From sequence record AP019521.1: 64,000 nucleotides of DNA; one strand, written 5' to 3'. This document shows, one piece after another, positions 27,200-35,591 of this stretch. This stretch comes from Escherichia phage KIT01. The translations under genes and the position numbers were made by a program. A model generated the notes under the pieces. The model saw only the letters and a program-made list of their open reading frames with translations. It was not told the origin of the DNA and searched no databases. Positions within the stretch are counted from its first letter, which is position 1; each line of letters begins with the position of its first letter.

Positions 27200-27206
27200 C
27201 AAAAAA

Positions 27207-27224
27207 GGAGAGCATATGCTCTCC
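27207..27224. terminator. Palindromic stem-loop ggagagcatatgctctcc between gene 54 and the alt-region ORF
   Basis: 18-nt perfect palindrome flanked by A-run and T-rich sequence. Confidence 0.55.
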
Positions 27225-27233
27225 TTTAGGGGT

Positions 27234-27524
27234 TTATTTACGGAACGAAATGAAACCTGCTGTGGTCATTAGTGGTTGCTTTTTAACAAAGACCGTGATA
27301 GAAATAGGAGCTTCAGATTCAAGCTGACCGGTTACTACACCATTAAAGATATTTTCAGTTTGTTCTGGATGAGAAAAATTCTCAACAGGTCGGATATCAA
27401 ACTGTTTGTCTTCACCGAAAACTCGACGTAATTCATTACCTACTGCACTGTCAAACTCTTCGGAAGCAGGGATAACGTTTTCAACCACCAGTTCTTGACC
27501 ATTAAAACGGAATGCAGATTTCAT
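27234..27524 (-). CDS. Hypothetical protein downstream of alt array
   Basis: 96-aa minus-strand ORF between the gene 54 terminator and the alt array. Confidence 0.45.
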   Translation of the reverse strand: MKSAFRFNGQELVVENVIPASEEFDSAVGNELRRVFGEDKQFDIRPVENFSHPEQTENIFNGVVTGQLESEAPISITVFVKKQPLMTTAGFISFRK

Positions 27525-27581: not shown

Positions 27582-29705
27582 CTACATTTTGAATTTATTT
27601 GATAAAGAAGAGATATCCAAAGACGCGGCAAGGATTTCCATAGCTTCGTTGCTTTCAGAAACGGATTCATTAACCAAGAATTGACTGAATCCATCCATCA
27701 GGCGAACTTCACCAGTTTCCATCAAATGGTCACCATCGTAAACAGATTCGCTGAGCTCTGAAGGAGGCGTTACGGTAGCTTCCATAAGGTATTTGTGAGA
27801 TACTCTATCATTCATGGCAAAAGCCGCTACTTTATCAACCTTCAACAATAATCCACGCGGAAGGATAATTTCTGCTTCTTCGGCATATTCTGTAAGGTCA
27901 CCAGGAGCGATAACTTTAACTGCTTCAGCACCTCGAATAACCATACCAATTTCAGCAATTCTATCCGCAGGACCTTCAGGTGCAATTGGATTACCGAACT
28001 CGTCTTCTTCCCATTCTACCTCTTCGTCATCGACTTCACCCACATCAGATGAACTACCACTAGCCAATTTAAACAACTCATCAGCAGAGGATAAAGAACC
28101 TTCACCACCAACAAAAACGGCTTGGTTGTCGAGGGCCATATAATTTTTACCAAATTCACCAAAGATGTTAGGCTTTAATGAGGCTGACACAAAGTTCTTA
28201 AAGTAAAATGTTTTGTTATCGATATTATGGCGCAGAATTTTGTATGGCAAATCCTGACCACGATACAAAATAGTACCCTTAGGAAGTTTAATACCCTTAG
28301 TAAATGCTGAGTCTAAATCCTTAATCAATTTAATAGCCGTTGTATTGTTTTCGGATTCAGGTTTACCTAAAAGGAATAAGTTCATAGGAGCATATTCAGC
28401 CGCGCAATATTCAATAATAGCATTGCTTTCGTCTTTGGTTAGGTCCTTAGGTTTAATGAGCTCGCCTGAATAAGCATATGCATCACTAATAGAATCGTTA
28501 ACCAGTTTATAAACGGCTTCCATAGCGAAAGCAATTCGAGATGCTTTCTCTGAAGGGGAACCCTTAAAACGGGTACTCAGGTTATTAACAATTTTCTTAA
28601 TAATATCCAGACTATTGGTTGTATTGATTTGCGAAAGGCCACTTAAAAGTCTATCGACTTCTGTATTAAAAAATGCCATATTATTAGAGTAAATTTCAAA
28701 CCCTTGTTTATCTCTATTAGCATAATTTAGTTTAAATTTACTATCAGTCATTAAAGCGTGTGTGAGAGCAATAGTGTATCTAAAGTTGGCAAGGTCCTCG
28801 CTCTTAGATTTAAACTGAGAAGCCTGGCGCATTTTAGTAATAGCACCTTTTTTAAAGTTCTGACTAATCTGTTCAATACCTTCGTTCTCAGGGCCTTCAG
28901 CCGTGTGAACCGGTACAGAAGCTTCAAACTCGTTATAAACCTGCAATTCTTTAGGGGACAAAGTTTCAGGCTCAGCAGTAGAATACTGCGCGGCCGCTGC
29001 CATACGACGCGAAATCTTAGTACGAGTAATAACAGCCTTATCAGTACGTTTCTCTTCAACTTGTGCAATAGATGCCGCTACGGCTTCGACCTTACTTACG
29101 GCCTGGCCAGTTTTCTTAGAAACATACACTTCGCCAACTTTAGACTCAACTTTAGTATAAAGATCGGCATTAATTTCAGGCATACCCTTGATATCTTCAA
29201 TATTAGCACCACGACGTACTAAAAGAACGTAGGTATGTTTTCCGCTGAATTGGAACATGTCGTCAACAACTTTAAACTTACCACCGGTACGAGCCATAGC
29301 CAAACGAGCTAATACGCGCTGGACGGTAGGACCTTTACCTTTCATTTTCTTAGTAGGGAAACGGAACAAAACCGCGTCCATTTTAAGTTTGTTTACTTGT
29401 TCGTATATGGTATCGAAAATGGTGTTCAGTGTACCGAGTGGATCGGTACCCAAACCACCCTTGAGTTCTGCCGGAGCGCCTTTAGCAGATAAACTCATTA
29501 AGATAACATGGACGTACTTATCACCATTTTTAACCATCTTAATAGCGTCGCCTTCAGACGCATAAGATACCATACGTGCTACTAAATTGTCATTACCAGG
29601 AGCATGTACCGCAAAAATCTGCGGTACGCCTGAGCCAGGTTTAAGATTTGTTACTGGGTAATTTTTTTTATCGCTTTTATCAAAAACTTCGTTTAAATTT
29701 TCCAT
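27582..29705 (-). CDS. alt: Alt-type ADP-ribosyltransferase, paralog A (most 3' in transcription order)
   Basis: 707 aa; N-terminal about 230 aa aligns with remembered T4 Alt; catalytic signatures R (LYRGQ), S-A-S (YFKNFVSASLKP), E-x-E (EAEIILPRG); conserved C-terminal DGDHLMETGE. Confidence 0.8.
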   Translation of the reverse strand: MENLNEVFDKSDKKNYPVTNLKPGSGVPQIFAVHAPGNDNLVARMVSYASEGDAIKMVKNGDKYVHVILMSLSAKGAPAELKGGLGTDPLGTLNTIFDTIYEQVNKLKMDAVLFRFPTKKMKGKGPTVQRVLARLAMARTGGKFKVVDDMFQFSGKHTYVLLVRRGANIEDIKGMPEINADLYTKVESKVGEVYVSKKTGQAVSKVEAVAASIAQVEEKRTDKAVITRTKISRRMAAAAQYSTAEPETLSPKELQVYNEFEASVPVHTAEGPENEGIEQISQNFKKGAITKMRQASQFKSKSEDLANFRYTIALTHALMTDSKFKLNYANRDKQGFEIYSNNMAFFNTEVDRLLSGLSQINTTNSLDIIKKIVNNLSTRFKGSPSEKASRIAFAMEAVYKLVNDSISDAYAYSGELIKPKDLTKDESNAIIEYCAAEYAPMNLFLLGKPESENNTTAIKLIKDLDSAFTKGIKLPKGTILYRGQDLPYKILRHNIDNKTFYFKNFVSASLKPNIFGEFGKNYMALDNQAVFVGGEGSLSSADELFKLASGSSSDVGEVDDEEVEWEEDEFGNPIAPEGPADRIAEIGMVIRGAEAVKVIAPGDLTEYAEEAEIILPRGLLLKVDKVAAFAMNDRVSHKYLMEATVTPPSELSESVYDGDHLMETGEVRLMDGFSQFLVNESVSESNEAMEILAASLDISSLSNKFKM

Positions 29706-29708
29706 TAT

Positions 29709-31754
29709 TTACCCTTGGGTGAATTTTTCTGGGGTTTCGTCAAAATTAATACATGAAGCTAAAATAGGCATTATATCCACCTTGGTCGATTTGACGAATG
29801 AATCAAAAGACACAGGGTTGTCGGTCTCTGTTTCTACGCCTTGGTAAACAACCAATTCGCCGGTTTCCATCAATGCATCACCATCATAGATAACCGCATT
29901 TTCTGCTAGTTGGTCTGTGGTCTGGATGTCAGCTTCCAATAATTTGGTGTTGTAGTTTCCTTTATATGAGGCATCTGTAATTTTAGTAATCTTAACAGTA
30001 GTTCCACGTGGAAGAATAACCTCTTGTTCTGTTGGAGAACCTGACAATTCACCGGGCACAATTACGTTAATAGAGTCTGCACCGGAAATTTTCCAACCGA
30101 TGTTCATCATTGTATTTTCGGAACTCGTCAGCATACTTGGAAGAACAATTTCATTATCGCCTTGGAAAGATGTCCCAGCACGATAGTCCTGATGAACTGC
30201 GGCCATTGCGACGTTTGATACCCAGCCGCCAAAGATAATCGGCTTAAGGGACGTTGATACATAGTTCCTGAAATAAAACAATTTTGAGTGTTTGATTTTA
30301 TCAAAAGTGTTAACATTTAAATATTGACCACGCCAAAGTGTAATATCAGGTGGCAATTTATGGCCAATTTCAAATGCCGCATCCATATCATTAATTACTT
30401 CAATTACACGATAACTATCAATAAATTCTGCATCCTCTTCATAATAATTACCCAACAAATAATTATTAACATCGGTATAATATTGGCCGCAATAAGAAGA
30501 AATAGCCTCACGCTGCTCATACTCAAATCGATTATCGCTATAACTGGCTGTAAAATGCATAACACTTTCTGACGCTTCATTAGCAAAGTCGCTAACAGCA
30601 GCACTTATACGTTGAGCATACTCTTGTTCCCAAAGCTCTGCCGCATATTCTGCCGCATCCATATTAGGAGGAGCCTCATTCATTTTTCTTTCGATAAATG
30701 CAGCTTTGCGAAGGTTAAGAACCTCTGCACATGATTCGGCAAAAATCTGCATCTGCTTCATACTGCCGACAGGAGCACGTTTAAGTTCACGATGCATACG
30801 GTTAAAAATTGGGTCGGAGTCTTCGACTCGAATTTCTTCTTTCCAAACACCGTTTGCTCGCATAGCCATATCTGCCGCGCGCATACGCTCCATAGTATTC
30901 GTTTCAGAAGGTTGAATAAAAATTTCTAGTTCTTCATAATCATCGATAAGTTCTGCTGTTGCTGGGGCGCTAAATTTTGATGCCTCTGCATCAATCTCAT
31001 CCCAACCTTCCGGAACTTCATCTCGAGGAGAATACTGGGCTGCGGCTACAGCACGCCTAGAAATCTTGGTAGTAGTAATAACAGCCTTATCCGTACGTTT
31101 TTCTTCGACTGCAGCTATACTAGCAGATAGTGCTTCTATTTTGGTTACTGATTGGCCTGTTTTCTTGGATACATAAACCTCACCAACTTTAGACTCAACC
31201 TTAGTGTAAAGGTCTGCATCAATTTCAGGCATACCTTTTATGTCCTCAATATTAGCTTGTTTACGAACCAGTAAAACGTATGTATGTTTGCCTGTAAATT
31301 GATACAAATCATCGACAACTTTAAACTTGCCGCCAGTACGAGCCATCGCCAAACGTGCCAATACACGTTGAACAGTAGGACCTTTACCTTTCATTTTCTT
31401 GGTAGGGAACCGGAAAAGAACTGCATCCATACGAAGAGCTTTAACTTGTTCGTATACAGTATCAAAAATGGTATTCAGCGTACCAAGTGGGTCAGAACCT
31501 AACCCGCCTTTCAACTCGGCTGGGGTACCCTTAGCAGACAAACTCATCAAAATAACATGAACATATTTATCGCCCGGCTTAACCATTTTAATAGCGTCTC
31601 CTTGAGACGCATAAGATACCATACGAGCAACCAGGTTATCGTTACCTGGTGCTTGGATAGAGAAAATCTGTGGAATACCGGAACCCGGTTTAAGATTTAC
31701 TACTGGATAGTTTTTAGCGGAATCACTATCAAAAACCTCGTTTAAATTTTCCAT
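29709..31754 (-). CDS. Alt-type ADP-ribosyltransferase, paralog B
   Basis: 681 aa; same N-terminal module; LWRGQ, YFRNYVSTSLKP, EQEVILPRG motifs; divergent central region. Confidence 0.8.
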   Translation of the reverse strand: MENLNEVFDSDSAKNYPVVNLKPGSGIPQIFSIQAPGNDNLVARMVSYASQGDAIKMVKPGDKYVHVILMSLSAKGTPAELKGGLGSDPLGTLNTIFDTVYEQVKALRMDAVLFRFPTKKMKGKGPTVQRVLARLAMARTGGKFKVVDDLYQFTGKHTYVLLVRKQANIEDIKGMPEIDADLYTKVESKVGEVYVSKKTGQSVTKIEALSASIAAVEEKRTDKAVITTTKISRRAVAAAQYSPRDEVPEGWDEIDAEASKFSAPATAELIDDYEELEIFIQPSETNTMERMRAADMAMRANGVWKEEIRVEDSDPIFNRMHRELKRAPVGSMKQMQIFAESCAEVLNLRKAAFIERKMNEAPPNMDAAEYAAELWEQEYAQRISAAVSDFANEASESVMHFTASYSDNRFEYEQREAISSYCGQYYTDVNNYLLGNYYEEDAEFIDSYRVIEVINDMDAAFEIGHKLPPDITLWRGQYLNVNTFDKIKHSKLFYFRNYVSTSLKPIIFGGWVSNVAMAAVHQDYRAGTSFQGDNEIVLPSMLTSSENTMMNIGWKISGADSINVIVPGELSGSPTEQEVILPRGTTVKITKITDASYKGNYNTKLLEADIQTTDQLAENAVIYDGDALMETGELVVYQGVETETDNPVSFDSFVKSTKVDIMPILASCINFDETPEKFTQG

Positions 31755-31757
31755 TAT

Positions 31758-33845
31758 TTACCCTTGGATGAATTTTTCTGGGATGTCATAGAGGTCTATG
31801 CATGAAGCCAAAAGAGACAGTACATCAAACCGTGTAGATTTAACAAATGAATCAAAAGATACGGGGCTTTCGGAAGTATCGAAATCATCTTGATATACGA
31901 CCAACTCACCGGTTTCCATTAGTACGTCACCATCATATACCACAGATTCTTGAAGCTCATCTGATGTCATAACTTCAGCTTGAATAAATTTATTGTTAGA
32001 CCCAGCCCCAGAACCAGTATTGGCTGATGCATCCACGATTTTATCTATTTTTACAAGTAGCCCGCGTGGTAAAATTATTTCCTTTTCGTTGGCATGCATG
32101 CTTAATTGGCCAGGATAAATCACGTTAACCTTATGAGCGCCACTAATAGCCCAGCCAACATCAACCCGGATTTGATCCGGTGCATACATATGTGTACGCA
32201 CTTGACTATCAGAGATGGTAACGCCTTCGTCATTATTATCAACGTTTAATTCTTTTCGAACATCATCGGAAGCAAGACCAATAGCCGCATTCTCTTTAAA
32301 GCCACCAAAAATGATTGGAGCCAATGAGGTTGAAACATAGTTTCTAAAATAGAATACCTTATTTTTAACTAATGCTTCGTAGATAGGCGCGCGCAAAGAT
32401 TGGGCTCTATAAACCATTATTCCTTCAGGTAAACGGTCACCATTTTTAAAGGCCGAATCCATTCCATCAATAGCACGTTTAACTTCGCTTTCGTCCAAAA
32501 CTTCATAAAAGCCTGGTTTATAACGGCCAAGAAGGACATTGTTGATATCAACATAAGCTGAAGAGGCGTATTCTCTGATAGCTCGTTTTTCTGCAAGTGT
32601 ATATTGTTTAGGGTCTCGAGATGTTGTTATATTAAGAATTTCTCTAGTTGATTCTATAGCGTATGTATACATTATCTTAGACAAGAATGAAGACTTACGT
32701 TGTTTCCATACTCTTTCACTGTTTTCATTCAATATCTCTTTTTCCAAATGGAAATTGTCTTTTCTATAATCTTCAAACCAATCACTTTTAATAGATTCTG
32801 CGATTTCATTAGCAGCTTCAACAAAGGCAGCTAAAGCTTTAACTGACGTGGTTTTTTCATTTTTAATTTTTTTGACAAATTTTTCTAAAGAAGAGTTAAT
32901 TTTATCACCGTAAGAAACTTCATCCGCAAATTTAAATGAATCATCCATAGTATTATAAATTTTAAAATCAATAGCCGTAGCCAGCTTATCCTTAGCTGTT
33001 TCGGATGATAATGATAATTCAACTTCGGCTGCTTGTGGAATTAATTCCGCCGTAGCAGGTGCACTGAACTCATTGGCAGTTTGTTCATATTTCTGAAACA
33101 ATTCACCTTCATTACGGTCTGCTTCTAATGACTGACTTGCTGCAATAGCACGACGGGAAATCTTAGTTTTGGTTATAACCATTTTATCAGTGCGACGTTC
33201 TTCAACTTTAGCAATACTGCCGGCAATAGCAGTTTCTTTAGTAACCTGCATGCCTTCTTTTTTAGAAATATAAACTTCACCGACATCAGAATCTACCTTA
33301 GTATATAATTCAGCATTAATTTCTGGTATACCCTTAATATCTTCAATGTTAGCTTGTTTACGAACTACCAGAATATAAGTATGTTTGCCGGTGAATTCAT
33401 ACATGGCTGGAACTACTTTAAATCGTCCACCAGTTTTCTGTGCTACTAAACGTTGAATAATACGTTGAACGATAGGACCTTGTCCTTTCATTTTCTTGGT
33501 AGGGAACCGGAACATCACGGCATCCATACGAAGAGCTTTAACTTGTTCGTAGACAACACTAAAGATAGTATTAATTGCATCGATAGGAGTAGGGCCAAGG
33601 CCACCCTTAAGTTCTGCTGGAGTACCTTTAGCTGATAAACTCATCAGAATAACGTGGGCATATTTATCACCTAATTTAACTTGTTTGATCGCGTCTCCTT
33701 GAGACGCATAAGATACCATACGAGCAACTAATTGGGACTCTGCATCGCCAATCTTCCAAATCTGGGGTACTTTAAGTTTAGGGTTCAAGTTTACTGTAGG
33801 CAGTGTGCCTTCGGACTCAAACACTTCATTTAATTGTTCGGTCAT
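31758..33845 (-). CDS. Alt-type ADP-ribosyltransferase, paralog C
   Basis: 695 aa; closest of the three to remembered T4 Alt (REYASSAYVDINNVLLG, VYRAQ, YFRNYVSTSLAP, EKEIILPRG). Confidence 0.8.
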   Translation of the reverse strand: MTEQLNEVFESEGTLPTVNLNPKLKVPQIWKIGDAESQLVARMVSYASQGDAIKQVKLGDKYAHVILMSLSAKGTPAELKGGLGPTPIDAINTIFSVVYEQVKALRMDAVMFRFPTKKMKGQGPIVQRIIQRLVAQKTGGRFKVVPAMYEFTGKHTYILVVRKQANIEDIKGIPEINAELYTKVDSDVGEVYISKKEGMQVTKETAIAGSIAKVEERRTDKMVITKTKISRRAIAASQSLEADRNEGELFQKYEQTANEFSAPATAELIPQAAEVELSLSSETAKDKLATAIDFKIYNTMDDSFKFADEVSYGDKINSSLEKFVKKIKNEKTTSVKALAAFVEAANEIAESIKSDWFEDYRKDNFHLEKEILNENSERVWKQRKSSFLSKIMYTYAIESTREILNITTSRDPKQYTLAEKRAIREYASSAYVDINNVLLGRYKPGFYEVLDESEVKRAIDGMDSAFKNGDRLPEGIMVYRAQSLRAPIYEALVKNKVFYFRNYVSTSLAPIIFGGFKENAAIGLASDDVRKELNVDNNDEGVTISDSQVRTHMYAPDQIRVDVGWAISGAHKVNVIYPGQLSMHANEKEIILPRGLLVKIDKIVDASANTGSGAGSNNKFIQAEVMTSDELQESVVYDGDVLMETGELVVYQDDFDTSESPVSFDSFVKSTRFDVLSLLASCIDLYDIPEKFIQG

Positions 33846-33881
33846 AATAATTCCTCTTTAATAACCTTATTTATGCCAGAA

Positions 33882-33897
33882 AAGGCCCGAAGGCCTT
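33882..33897 (-). terminator. Stem-loop aaggcc-cgaa-ggcctt upstream of alt paralog C
   Basis: 6-bp stem with GNRA-like loop; may be a terminator or RNA processing/stability element. Confidence 0.4.
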
Positions 33898-34066
33898 AAA
33901 GTGGTAGCAACGTACGGTATACTTCGAATGTCGGGCCTTTTTCGTAGCCATCAAATGTGTCTTTAAAATCGGCAAAAGCTATTTCGTCCTCAAAATCAAG
34001 GATGATTTGAGAGACTGCCGTGGTATTTGTATTTGATACAACAACTGTTTCTAAATAAACTTTCAT
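33896..34066 (-). CDS. Hypothetical small protein
   Basis: Minus-strand ORF between ligase and alt array; start set at the internal ATG to avoid a 41-nt overlap with gene 30. Confidence 0.35.
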   Translation of the reverse strand: MKVYLETVVVSNTNTTAVSQIILDFEDEIAFADFKDTFDGYEKGPTFEVYRTLLPL

Positions 34067-34067
34067 A

Positions 34068-35591
34068 TTATAACCCAGTTTGAGACCAATCGCCAAATAC
34101 ATCTTCAAATGTATCAGCTTCTGTTTTATCGAAACGCCAACCTTTAATGATTGGAAGGAAAATACCTACAGTATCGGTACGTCCTTTAGAATGAACCCAA
34201 CCATTACATTCACAGTCGGCAATACGGCCAATCAATTTACCTTCACGAGCTTGTTTCATAAGAAGTTCACGGTCTAAATCAGGACGGTCTTCCAATGGAA
34301 TCAATACCTTTTTACCTGATTTATCTTTCTTATGGGTGGTATCTTTAAAGCCTGAACCACAGTCACTTGTAATTCTACGACAACGTGATACCAATTCAAC
34401 ACCACCAAGTTTGTTAGGGTCTTTCGAGTGTTCATAGTAACCTACTACTTCTAAAGCGATATCGATTACTTCTTTGAACTTGATAAGATTCTTAGAACGG
34501 CGGTTTTCCCAGTAGGAGTCCATGTTCTTAAGGATAATACCTTCCAGACCTTGGTCGACATATTTCTTATAAACGACTTTAGCTTCTTCAAGATTATTAA
34601 CCCACCGGTTTTCGATAGCTTCAACACGCGTTGTACCGTGCAATACGACATTATGAGCAACCATAAGTTCTAAGGCTGTAAAGCGTACATCGTACTTATC
34701 GCCTTTAATTTTACCTTCGGAATACACGACATCCAGTGGAACATAATCCCATGCCTGTAATACCATACCGGCAGCTTCAGTAGCGGAAATAGTTCCTTGG
34801 AGAGCTTTATTAGCCAGGCCATTTGACGTAGAACGATCGGCGACAGTTTGGAATTCCTTAGCCTTACTTAATTCAGGAAGTTCCTCATCAAACATACTAA
34901 ACAAATCATTAGATGCTTTAGGTTCTACTTTAGGAGTATGGTAAACTAATTCGCCATCAATCATAACACCATTAGGATGGCGTTGTCGAGCTTCTTCGGT
35001 CATGGCCATTAATTCAGCAGCTAAAAGATGAAGCCCTTGGTATTCATTACCACCACGAGTAAGGAATGTCACACCATCGTTACGAACTTCAGCAAAACAA
35101 CGGGCGCCATCAGCTTTTAATTGAGCAAACGCTGGCCATTTAATATTTTTCTTAATCAAATCTTCATCATAAGAGCTAGCTAACATTTGAGGTTGTTCAG
35201 GGATTAAACCTTTCCAAACCTTGTTAGCAATGGAAATCGATGCACCGCATTCAAGGTCGCGCATCATTACACGACGTAATACCTCGGCATCTTGAGCCTT
35301 AGCATCGGCAATGATTTGAGCCAGTTCTTCAATAGCTGCATTACCGGTAACCTTACGAGTGGCTAATGTGAATTCAGCGAAATCAAGAAGGTCTTCAAGA
35401 GTAATCATACCAAAGGATTGAGACGTAAATCCAGGTTCAGGCCACTTTTTAATACCGTAGTTCAGACGACGAGTATAAGCCATACGATATACGCGTTTCA
35501 GAAGCTCATTATCCTTTTCACGAGCAATAATAGCTTCTTTAGCTTTAGTAGAATCAATAGAAGCAATTTCGTTTAAAATATCTAAAATCAT
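34068..35591 (-). CDS. 30: ATP-dependent DNA ligase (gp30)
   Basis: 507 aa; adenylation motif KADG (FAQLKADGARC); position as T4 gene 30. Confidence 0.9.
   Translation of the reverse strand: MILDILNEIASIDSTKAKEAIIAREKDNELLKRVYRMAYTRRLNYGIKKWPEPGFTSQSFGMITLEDLLDFAEFTLATRKVTGNAAIEELAQIIADAKAQDAEVLRRVMMRDLECGASISIANKVWKGLIPEQPQMLASSYDEDLIKKNIKWPAFAQLKADGARCFAEVRNDGVTFLTRGGNEYQGLHLLAAELMAMTEEARQRHPNGVMIDGELVYHTPKVEPKASNDLFSMFDEELPELSKAKEFQTVADRSTSNGLANKALQGTISATEAAGMVLQAWDYVPLDVVYSEGKIKGDKYDVRFTALELMVAHNVVLHGTTRVEAIENRWVNNLEEAKVVYKKYVDQGLEGIILKNMDSYWENRRSKNLIKFKEVIDIALEVVGYYEHSKDPNKLGGVELVSRCRRITSDCGSGFKDTTHKKDKSGKKVLIPLEDRPDLDRELLMKQAREGKLIGRIADCECNGWVHSKGRTDTVGIFLPIIKGWRFDKTEADTFEDVFGDWSQTGL

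Follow-up and report, generated by a model that had tools for sequence, protein, structure and literature searches.

The 64,000-nt stretch of Escherichia phage KIT01 analyzed here (AP019521.1; hereafter the window) carries a tandem array of three genes for Alt, a textbook case of an enzyme injected by a phage with its DNA. The array lies on the minus strand between gene 30/alt.1 and alt.-3/gene 54, as in T4, and we refer to the three proteins, from the ligase gene outward, as AltP (proximal), AltM (middle), and AltD (distal). The original prediction, made from the letters of this DNA, described three back-to-back open reading frames of 707, 681, and 695 residues on that strand with 3-nt gaps, and the coordinates agree; both junctions have the form ...CAAGGGTAA-ATA-ATGGAAAAT, that is, ...CAAGGG TAA ATA ATG GAA AAT.... 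The proteins correspond to consecutive GenBank entries of KIT01, a Dhakavirus (BBI57553, BBI57552, and BBI57551), each named 'RNA polymerase ADP-ribosylase', and their annotation as Alt paralogs is correct.

The array is already known, both from GenBank annotation and as a published duplication. The nearest record in our phage collection, that of the Dhakavirus UGJNEcP3/4 (95.8% identity), has three coding sequences labeled 'Alt-like', and the same three-gene array is annotated in QL01, MX01, C6, AnYang, fDHCT2, UGJNEcP3/4, LHE83, and KIT01. The number of alt copies in other Dhakaviruses is two or three: alta and altb make up the JS98 array, and the three copies of WG01 and E33 form a set that differs from that of KIT01. 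Duplication of alt was noted for 44RR, RB49, and T4 by Nolan et al. in 2006 (PMC1524935) and for ZZ1, Ac42, JS98, and Bp7 by Jin et al. in 2014 (PMC4177764), who also reported that one ZZ1 copy is naturally split at the boundary between N-domain and effector. Our contribution is the cassette picture set out below; the array itself being annotated and published, the remaining value lies in its function.

Domain build and selection

The three proteins have a common build. A predicted 6–7-residue N-propeptide that ends in L-N-E is followed by an α/β N-domain of ~225 residues and a conserved KISRR linker, and after KISRR come a variable central region, an R-S-ExE ADP-ribosyltransferase (ART) domain, an L-x-E site, and a predicted acidic C-propeptide of 54–63 residues. 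The N-terminal ~233 residues are 66–86% identical between paralogs and 42–46% identical to T4 Alt, consistent with the claim that a shared region of about 230 residues aligns with the T4 protein. The central region (~170–200 residues), described in the same prediction as almost unrelated, is the most divergent part, with 6–22% identity between paralogs, and searches with it against Pfam and PDB sequences gave no identification. The ART domains are 33–41% identical and the C-terminal tails 38–62% identical, and YDGDxLMETGE is invariant in all three. In the AlphaFold2 model of AltP, which was built from 53 homologs and has a mean predicted local distance difference test score (pLDDT) of 80, an α/β N-domain (residues ~12–230) leads through a disordered linker (236–243) into an all-helical region (248–410; pLDDT about 90) and a domain with the three-dimensional ART fold (417–632). 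Residues 632–674, where the predicted C-terminal cleavage region falls, are disordered and are followed by short helices.

The Pfam family PF03496 (ADP-ribosyltransferase exoenzyme) scores 63.2, 74.6, and 101.4 bits for the three proteins, relative to a gathering score of 23.4 bits. The catalytic arginine is R480 in AltP, R475 in AltM, and R482 in AltD; the S-T-S motif begins at S505 in AltP and at S500 in AltM, and AltD has S507-A-S instead; and the E-x-E motif is E587xE589, E576xE578, and E610xE612, respectively. The second glutamate of this motif is aligned with E577 of T4 Alt, in which the E577A variant is inactive (PMC11404850). Each protein, including the 707-residue AltD with its SAS variant, therefore keeps the R, S-T(A)-S, and E-x-E signature that had been ascribed to it. 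Between S-T-S and E-x-E the paralogs are only 9–14% identical, and in AltD the corresponding stretch, from S-A-S to E-x-E, contains an additional acidic insertion. In C3-like ARTs, the loops between these two motifs contribute to substrate choice.

A stand-alone ART is found at the alt locus of Krischvirus JSE, where ORF190 (L011 8077–8901) lies directly downstream of alt. This 274-residue protein is without the Alt N-domain and has R, S-T-S, and CECE in place of E-x-E; it may be an unpackaged paralog.

Between orthologs, the ratio of nonsynonymous to synonymous substitution rates (dN/dS) is 0.0–0.27 in every region with an estimable dS, the central region included, and for AltD compared with Sf21 it is 0.15–0.26. 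The exception is the C-propeptide of AltP compared with UGJNEcP3, a short and barely diverged segment (dS 0.024) with a dN/dS of 0.60. The dS values were saturated for the N-domain in AltM/SP18 and AltD/Sf21 and for the C-propeptide in AltP/Mosigvirus. Purifying selection acts on all three genes, and KIT01 has three intact, selected Alt-family genes with ART motifs. The low ratios between orthologs indicate that the divergence of the paralogs is an old specialization and not ongoing rapid change. The diversification proposed in the original prediction therefore holds in part: the central regions are divergent, and they represent discrete old types apparently moved by recombination, whereas ongoing rapid evolution does not fit these dN/dS values.

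Predicted processing, packaging and expression

In T4, the prohead protease gp21 cuts Alt after ITE-6 and LTE-619, as established by mass spectrometry, and thereby removes 6 N-terminal and 63 C-terminal residues to leave a mature protein of 68.2 kDa (PMC5694885), of which about 40 copies are present per head (PMC5694885, PMC9026906). Our cleavage-site rule reproduces this published mass when applied to T4. All three KIT01 paralogs have L-x-E at both aligned gp21 positions, which we take as predicted sites, and the glutamate of the C-terminal site (C-site) is invariant in the alignment of the paralogs with T4 Alt; the sites and predicted mature masses are given in Table 1. The conserved DGDxLMETGE lies 3–4 residues downstream of the C-site, inside the acidic C-propeptide (isoelectric point about 4.1), and the second L-M-E that it provides could be a back-up cleavage site. 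Two earlier statements change in this light. The N-terminal region had been taken for the part processed by the protease, but T4 Alt loses only six residues at this end and the 230-residue N-domain stays in the mature protein (PMC5694885). The C-terminal DGDxLMETGE is invariant, as was stated, yet it belongs to the propeptide that is removed in T4 and not to the mature enzyme.

The expression signals at the locus resemble those of T4. The late-promoter-like site CATAAATA occupies the position of TATAAATA upstream of T4 alt, after the same hairpin; in T4 the order is likewise hairpin (AAAGGCCTTCGGGCCTTT) and then late promoter. Downstream of the KIT01 site come a strong Shine-Dalgarno-like sequence, AAAGAGGAA, and the AltP ATG, and at both array junctions an AAGGG Shine-Dalgarno-like sequence is supplied by the last codons of the upstream gene. 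From this arrangement we infer one late transcription unit with translational coupling. The expectation that all three proteins are probably packaged draws support from the L-x-E at both gp21 positions, the shared late-promoter-like site, and the 3-nt junctions with AAGGG, and the packaging and injection of all three appear plausible.

The hairpin ahead of the late-promoter-like site was left uncalled by the terminator scan on account of its short T-run; it may act as a weak terminator or contribute to RNA stability. Separate promoters for AltM and AltD were considered and rejected, as σ70-like matches occur at chance level. One such match, with TCGTCA and TATAAT separated by 16 nt (10 of 12 positions), lies inside AltM at 29770–29797 on the minus strand. 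The motif TATAAATA occurs 16 times in the whole window, compared with seven expected, and 11 of these occurrences are on the plus strand within 777–21009, a cluster that fits T4-type late promoters in a structural gene block. Upstream of the array, the listed TTG start of alt.1 overlaps the end of the ligase gene (34068–34108), the Pfam match begins at residue 15, and the JS98 gene is shorter; the true start is probably an internal ATG.

Table 1. Features of the alt array and its flanks, with positions in the window
Feature	Position	Strand	Remarks
AltP, 695 residues	31758..33845	minus	ligase-proximal copy, type A; exact match to KIT01 BBI57553.1; predicted N-site LNE7, C-site LQE633, mature mass 69.9 kDa
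AltP predicted N-propeptide	33825-33845	minus	residues 1-7
AltP N-domain	33150-33824	minus	residues 8-232
AltP helical central region	32610-33149	minus	residues 233-412
AltP ART	31947-32609	minus	residues 413-633
AltP C-propeptide	31761-31946	minus	residues 634-695, predicted
AltM, 681 residues	29709..31754	minus	middle copy, type M; exact match to KIT01 BBI57552.1; predicted N-site LNE6, C-site LAE618, mature mass 68.3 kDa
AltD, 707 residues	27582..29705	minus	distal copy, type D; exact match to KIT01 BBI57551.1; predicted N-site LNE6, C-site LSE653, mature mass 71.2 kDa
Direct repeat copy 1, about 912 nt	31026..31937	minus	AltP C-propeptide coding region, junction, AltM N-domain coding region
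Direct repeat copy 2, about 912 nt	28977..29888	minus	AltM C-propeptide coding region, junction, AltD N-domain coding region
Late-promoter-like CATAAATA	33868..33875	minus	7/8 matches to T4 TATAAATA
Hairpin AAGGCC-TTCG-GGCCTT	33882..33897	minus	directly after alt.1 stop codon, conserved with T4
alt.1 homolog (Pfam Phage_blade)	33896..34108	minus	upstream neighbor of array
alt.-3 homolog (DUF5498, 96 residues)	27234..27524	minus	last gene of predicted transcription unit
Terminator-like hairpin	27204..27227	minus	10 pairs then T-run; after alt.-3, between convergent alt unit and gene 54

Effector types, recombination and the N-domain

We split 26 Alt proteins from 11 phages at KISRR and compared the identities of their regions. 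The effector parts, that is, the central region plus the ART domain, group by type across genera. In type A, the AltP effector is 99% identical to that of JS98_1, 71% identical to that of a Mosigvirus Alt, and 43% identical to that of T4 Alt; in type M, AltM is 77–84% identical to altb of the Gaprivervirus SP18; in type D, AltD is 97–100% identical to the distal copies of JS98 (altb, 97%) and WG01 and 55% identical to Sf21 gp189; and in type X, the effectors of WG01_1 and SP18 alta share 60% identity. AltD is the ortholog of the second Alt of Tequatroviruses (e.g., Sf21 gp189) and of the T4 alt.-1/alt.-2 remnant. An M-type effector is present at ≥95% identity in 11 phage records and at 60–80% in 33. 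On these comparisons, the effector appears to exist as discrete ancient types, A, M, D, and X, that are shared between genera. Type X (624–631 residues) is found in the first slot in WG01 (L006 5091–6986), E33 (L007 5276–7171), and SP18 alta (L008 7001–8875), and it has, in place of YDGDxLMETGE, a different short C-terminus preceded by I-T-E or I-D-E.

The N-domains group by genome. Those of AltM and AltD are 86–87% identical to each other, and that of AltM is only 40% identical to that of SP18 altb; likewise, T4 Alt and Sf21 gp189 are 67–68% identical here, compared with 45–46% for T4 Alt and AltP. Recent gene conversion was rejected as the cause of N-domain conservation on the basis of a third-codon identity of ~0.5–0.6, and older homogenization or recombination is still needed to explain the grouping by genome. 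In seven chimeric pairs examined by sliding identity, identity falls from 90–100% to 20–60% within about 10 residues after KISRR and often recovers at the C-propeptide. The protein P0086, for example, has a Tequatrovirus N-domain and C-propeptide and an ART domain that is 95–100% identical to that of Dhakavirus WG01_2, and AltP and QL01_1 are 95% identical in the N-domain, 97% identical in the C-propeptide, and only 34% identical in the central region. For AltP and JS98_1 (JS98 L004 3210–5297), dS is 0.475 in the N-domain versus about 0.05 in the central and ART regions, which indicates a recent recombination boundary inside the gene.

The array also contains long direct repeats, each of which spans a junction together with the flanking C-propeptide and N-domain coding regions (Table 1), and the two copies are 65–88% identical in 60-nt bins. 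The single junction of JS98 is like copy 1 for its first ~360–400 nt and then like copy 2, a pattern that points to a single crossover within the N-domain repeat, by which the M cassette was either removed or added. The arrays seen are A-M-D, X-A-D, A-D, and X-M, all of which obey the order X-A-M-D, and no true four-gene array was present among those surveyed. Two candidates for longer arrays were rejected: LHE83 gives four matches because its array crosses the start of the record, and phage 04086 (L013, OR842557.1) gives five because its record is fragmented. With only 148 annotated features over 177 kb and a third Alt gene that is interrupted, this Dhakavirus record looks like one with sequencing or assembly errors. 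We did not find the type-and-module structure, the X-A-M-D slot order, or the crossover between two- and three-gene arrays in the searchable papers, whose notes cover just the duplication itself; these papers are an incomplete literature beyond which they may be described elsewhere.

T4 itself retains a trace of a second copy. Its reference annotation describes alt.-1 and alt.-2 as an old duplication of the start of alt, and many Tequatrovirus records give two matches to the Alt N-domain. The products of alt.-1 and alt.-2 (L003 5066–5451) are 95% and 98% identical to residues 1–56 and 62–116, respectively, of the intact Sf21 gp189 (L002 8062–10119), from which it follows that laboratory T4 lost its second Alt recently and that a single alt is atypical for a Tequatrovirus. 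The statement in the original prediction that T4 has one alt is thus accurate for intact copies but incomplete with regard to this remnant.

Homologs of the Alt N-domain are listed under the precomputed Pfam family PF26846. The domain has two Gly-rich loops before helices, L79-K-G-G-L-G84 and K118-M-K-G121-Q-G123, in which L79, L83, G84, and G121 are invariant across genera, K80 is nearly invariant, and K118 is invariant only among closer relatives. Compared at the sequence level with GNAT motif A (Q/R-x-x-G-x-G/A at the β4-α3 junction), neither loop has the Q/R. No GNAT family was among the Pfam matches at E ≤ 10, which comprised only sub-threshold matches to the unrelated TseB and DUF601, and a profile search of the N-domain against PDB sequences gave 0 matches at E ≤ 10. 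We take the weak GNAT-like resemblance of the N-domain in fold as a lead rather than a family assignment. When 1.84 billion representative proteins were scanned with HMMER, using a profile that spanned the whole protein length, the N-domain occurred almost always together with ART. One metagenomic protein, P0191 (1142 residues), has an Alt N-domain and an ART-like segment, followed by ~600 residues that match nothing in Pfam. Among viral models (BFVD), a Foldseek search, the only search to suggest other architectures, returned similar folds (E 1e-8 to 1e-3; TM score 0.4–0.57) that start large uncharacterized proteins, which hints that the N-domain may belong to a wider N-terminal module of virion-delivered proteins. 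The matches come from Dickeya phage RC-2014, Shigella phage MK-13, Erwinia phage phiEa2809, Vibrio phages VP-1 and Kuja, and Agrobacterium phage Atu_ph07, Ackermannviridae-like phages being among them; there are several paralogs per phage, and some have Zeta-toxin, deaminase, or ParB/Srx annotations.

Function, alternatives and related systems

We propose that KIT01 has three functional Alt paralogs in one unit, composed of the late-promoter-like site, AltP, AltM, AltD, alt.-3, and the terminator, and we give this reading, with the account of processing, specialization, and cassettes that goes with it, a probability of roughly two in three. All three proteins would be made late and enter the prohead core, where a gp21-type protease would trim both ends of each to about 68–71 kDa, and the mature proteins would be ejected with the DNA. 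Each would then mono-ADP-ribosylate arginines on a different set of host proteins, its specificity being set by the helical central region and by the loops, divergent among the paralogs, that lie between S-T-S and E-x-E. The N-domain follows the resident genome, as the C-propeptide often does, and the two would provide homology arms for cassette swaps and, through unequal crossover, for changes in copy number. That Alt variants are not functionally equivalent is supported by a preprint report (bioRxiv 10.1101/2025.11.20.689424) that evasion of a Mokosh type I system requires T4 Alt and that Bas37 Alt cannot take its place.

Several points weigh against this proposal. Among the paralogs, targets are known only for T4 Alt, and the full-length structure model covers AltP only. 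The part of Alt that targets it to the head core is not established in the literature (PMC5694885), L-x-E is a short motif, and we found no virion proteome in the literature for phages with two or three Alt copies, so that the packaging of AltM and AltD is deduced from motifs. On the minus strand near the array there is no exact TATAAATA, the promoter matching the T4 late consensus at seven of eight positions, and early or middle promoters farther upstream may also be read through into the array.

Among the alternatives, an assembly duplication artefact has nothing in its favor beyond the tandem arrangement itself, and we regard it as practically negligible: the paralogs are 41–49% identical overall, even the conserved N-domain is saturated at synonymous sites, and the same array recurs in at least eight phages that were sequenced independently. 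The original prediction had also judged an artefact unlikely, and the third-codon identity at identical residues of the N-domain (~0.5–0.6) and the independent phages bear this out. A more substantial alternative is that only AltP is packaged and injected and that AltM and AltD act inside the producing cell in the manner of ModA/ModB, for example, in anti-defense or host shutoff. In its favor, the σ70-like site lies 65–90 nt upstream of AltD (29797–29770), and the stand-alone ART that adjoins alt in JSE suggests that unpackaged ART paralogs may exist at the locus. AltM and AltD nevertheless equal AltP in their retention of the N-propeptide, N-domain, C-site L-x-E, and C-propeptide motif, the 3-nt junctions speak for expression together with AltP, and promoter-like matches are no commoner than in shuffled sequence (24 versus 27 expected), all of which leads us to consider this alternative improbable.

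The three copies could also be redundant, acting on the same targets (the α subunit of RNA polymerase and others) and raising or buffering the injected dose. All three share their catalytic core and arginine-type E-x-E, and T4 Alt is both non-essential and promiscuous (PMC9026906, PMC5512222). Redundancy is nonetheless hard to reconcile with the low identity between paralogs in the central region and between S-T-S and E-x-E, with the non-interchangeability of Alt variants against Mokosh (10.1101/2025.11.20.689424), or with the conservation of each type across genera under purifying selection (M, 77–84% to SP18; D, 45–59% to Sf21), which is unexpected of redundant copies, and we consider it unlikely. 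We are similarly doubtful that the N-domain, instead of being a passive packaging handle, is a second head for ligand binding or catalysis that derives from a GNAT acyltransferase and is delivered with the ART domain. Its retention in the mature T4 protein (PMC5694885), its two Gly-rich loops with invariant L79, L83, G84, and G121, and its near-constant pairing with ART in distant relatives would suit such a role, but the canonical Q/R of motif A is missing and there is no Pfam or PDB sequence-profile signal. Moreover, the N-domain tracks the phage genome and not the effector type, a pattern that speaks more for a partner on the phage side, such as the head core, than for a host target.

Should the Alt types differ in their targets, as we propose, the combination of types in a phage would form part of its host-takeover and anti-defense repertoire and would be worth considering when T4-like phages are chosen for therapy. 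For engineering, the cassettes offer natural junctions at two points, after KISRR and at the C-terminal L-x-E.

The KIT01 array represents the same phenomenon, at the same locus, as the tandem alt paralogs described in JS98 (alta/altb), Bp7 (alt/alt'), SP18 (alta/altb), Ac42, ZZ1, 44RR (ORF187c), T4 (alt.-1/alt.-2), and Sf21 (gp189/gp190). Its closest reference is T4 Alt, of which AltP is the direct ortholog by position and sequence (N-domain, 46% identity; ART domain, 55%) and which has the same domain order, R-S-ExE motifs, both L-x-E positions, and the hairpin and the position of the late-promoter-like site in common with the array. T4 differs from KIT01 in that it has one alt and a remnant in lieu of three intact copies; its central region is 9–23% identical to those of the KIT01 copies, and AltM and AltD are other effector types. 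ModA and ModB of T4 belong to the same ART clade and phage group; they are single-domain proteins of ~200 residues that are made early after infection and are not packaged. Taken by description, the KIT01 proteins differ from them in length (681–707 residues), in having the Alt N-domain and both propeptide motifs, and in lying at the alt locus, and none of the three is a short single-domain ART without N-domain or propeptides. The C3/VIP2/iota-like bacterial toxins, which are R-S-E ADP-ribosylating enzymes of the PF03496 family, are delivered by a B-component or a secretion system, whereas Alt is ejected from the phage head and adds to the shared fold a phage N-domain, a helical region of ~170 residues, and propeptides removed by a protease.

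The organization of the array is reminiscent of polymorphic toxin systems such as CdiA-CT and Rhs, in which, as in Alt, a conserved N-terminal part and a short demarcation motif (KISRR in Alt) precede abruptly unrelated effectors, and in which tandem arrays, truncated remnants, and exchange between lineages by recombination occur. The window's list of open reading frames shows no cognate immunity gene after each Alt module and no small reading frames between the genes, which lie only 3 nt apart and so leave no room for one. Alt arrays further differ from these systems in that they use one enzyme family, every array member is full-length, and the virion is the vehicle. We tentatively suggest that Alt arrays could be the phage counterpart of polymorphic effector systems, in which at least four old cassette types, set between delivery-handle arms and directed at different host targets (defenses such as Mokosh or MazEF included), are exchangeable and the arrays grow and shrink by unequal crossover. 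The arms may be the genome-specific GNAT-like N-terminal module and the C-terminal propeptide, each used as delivery handle and recombination arm at once.

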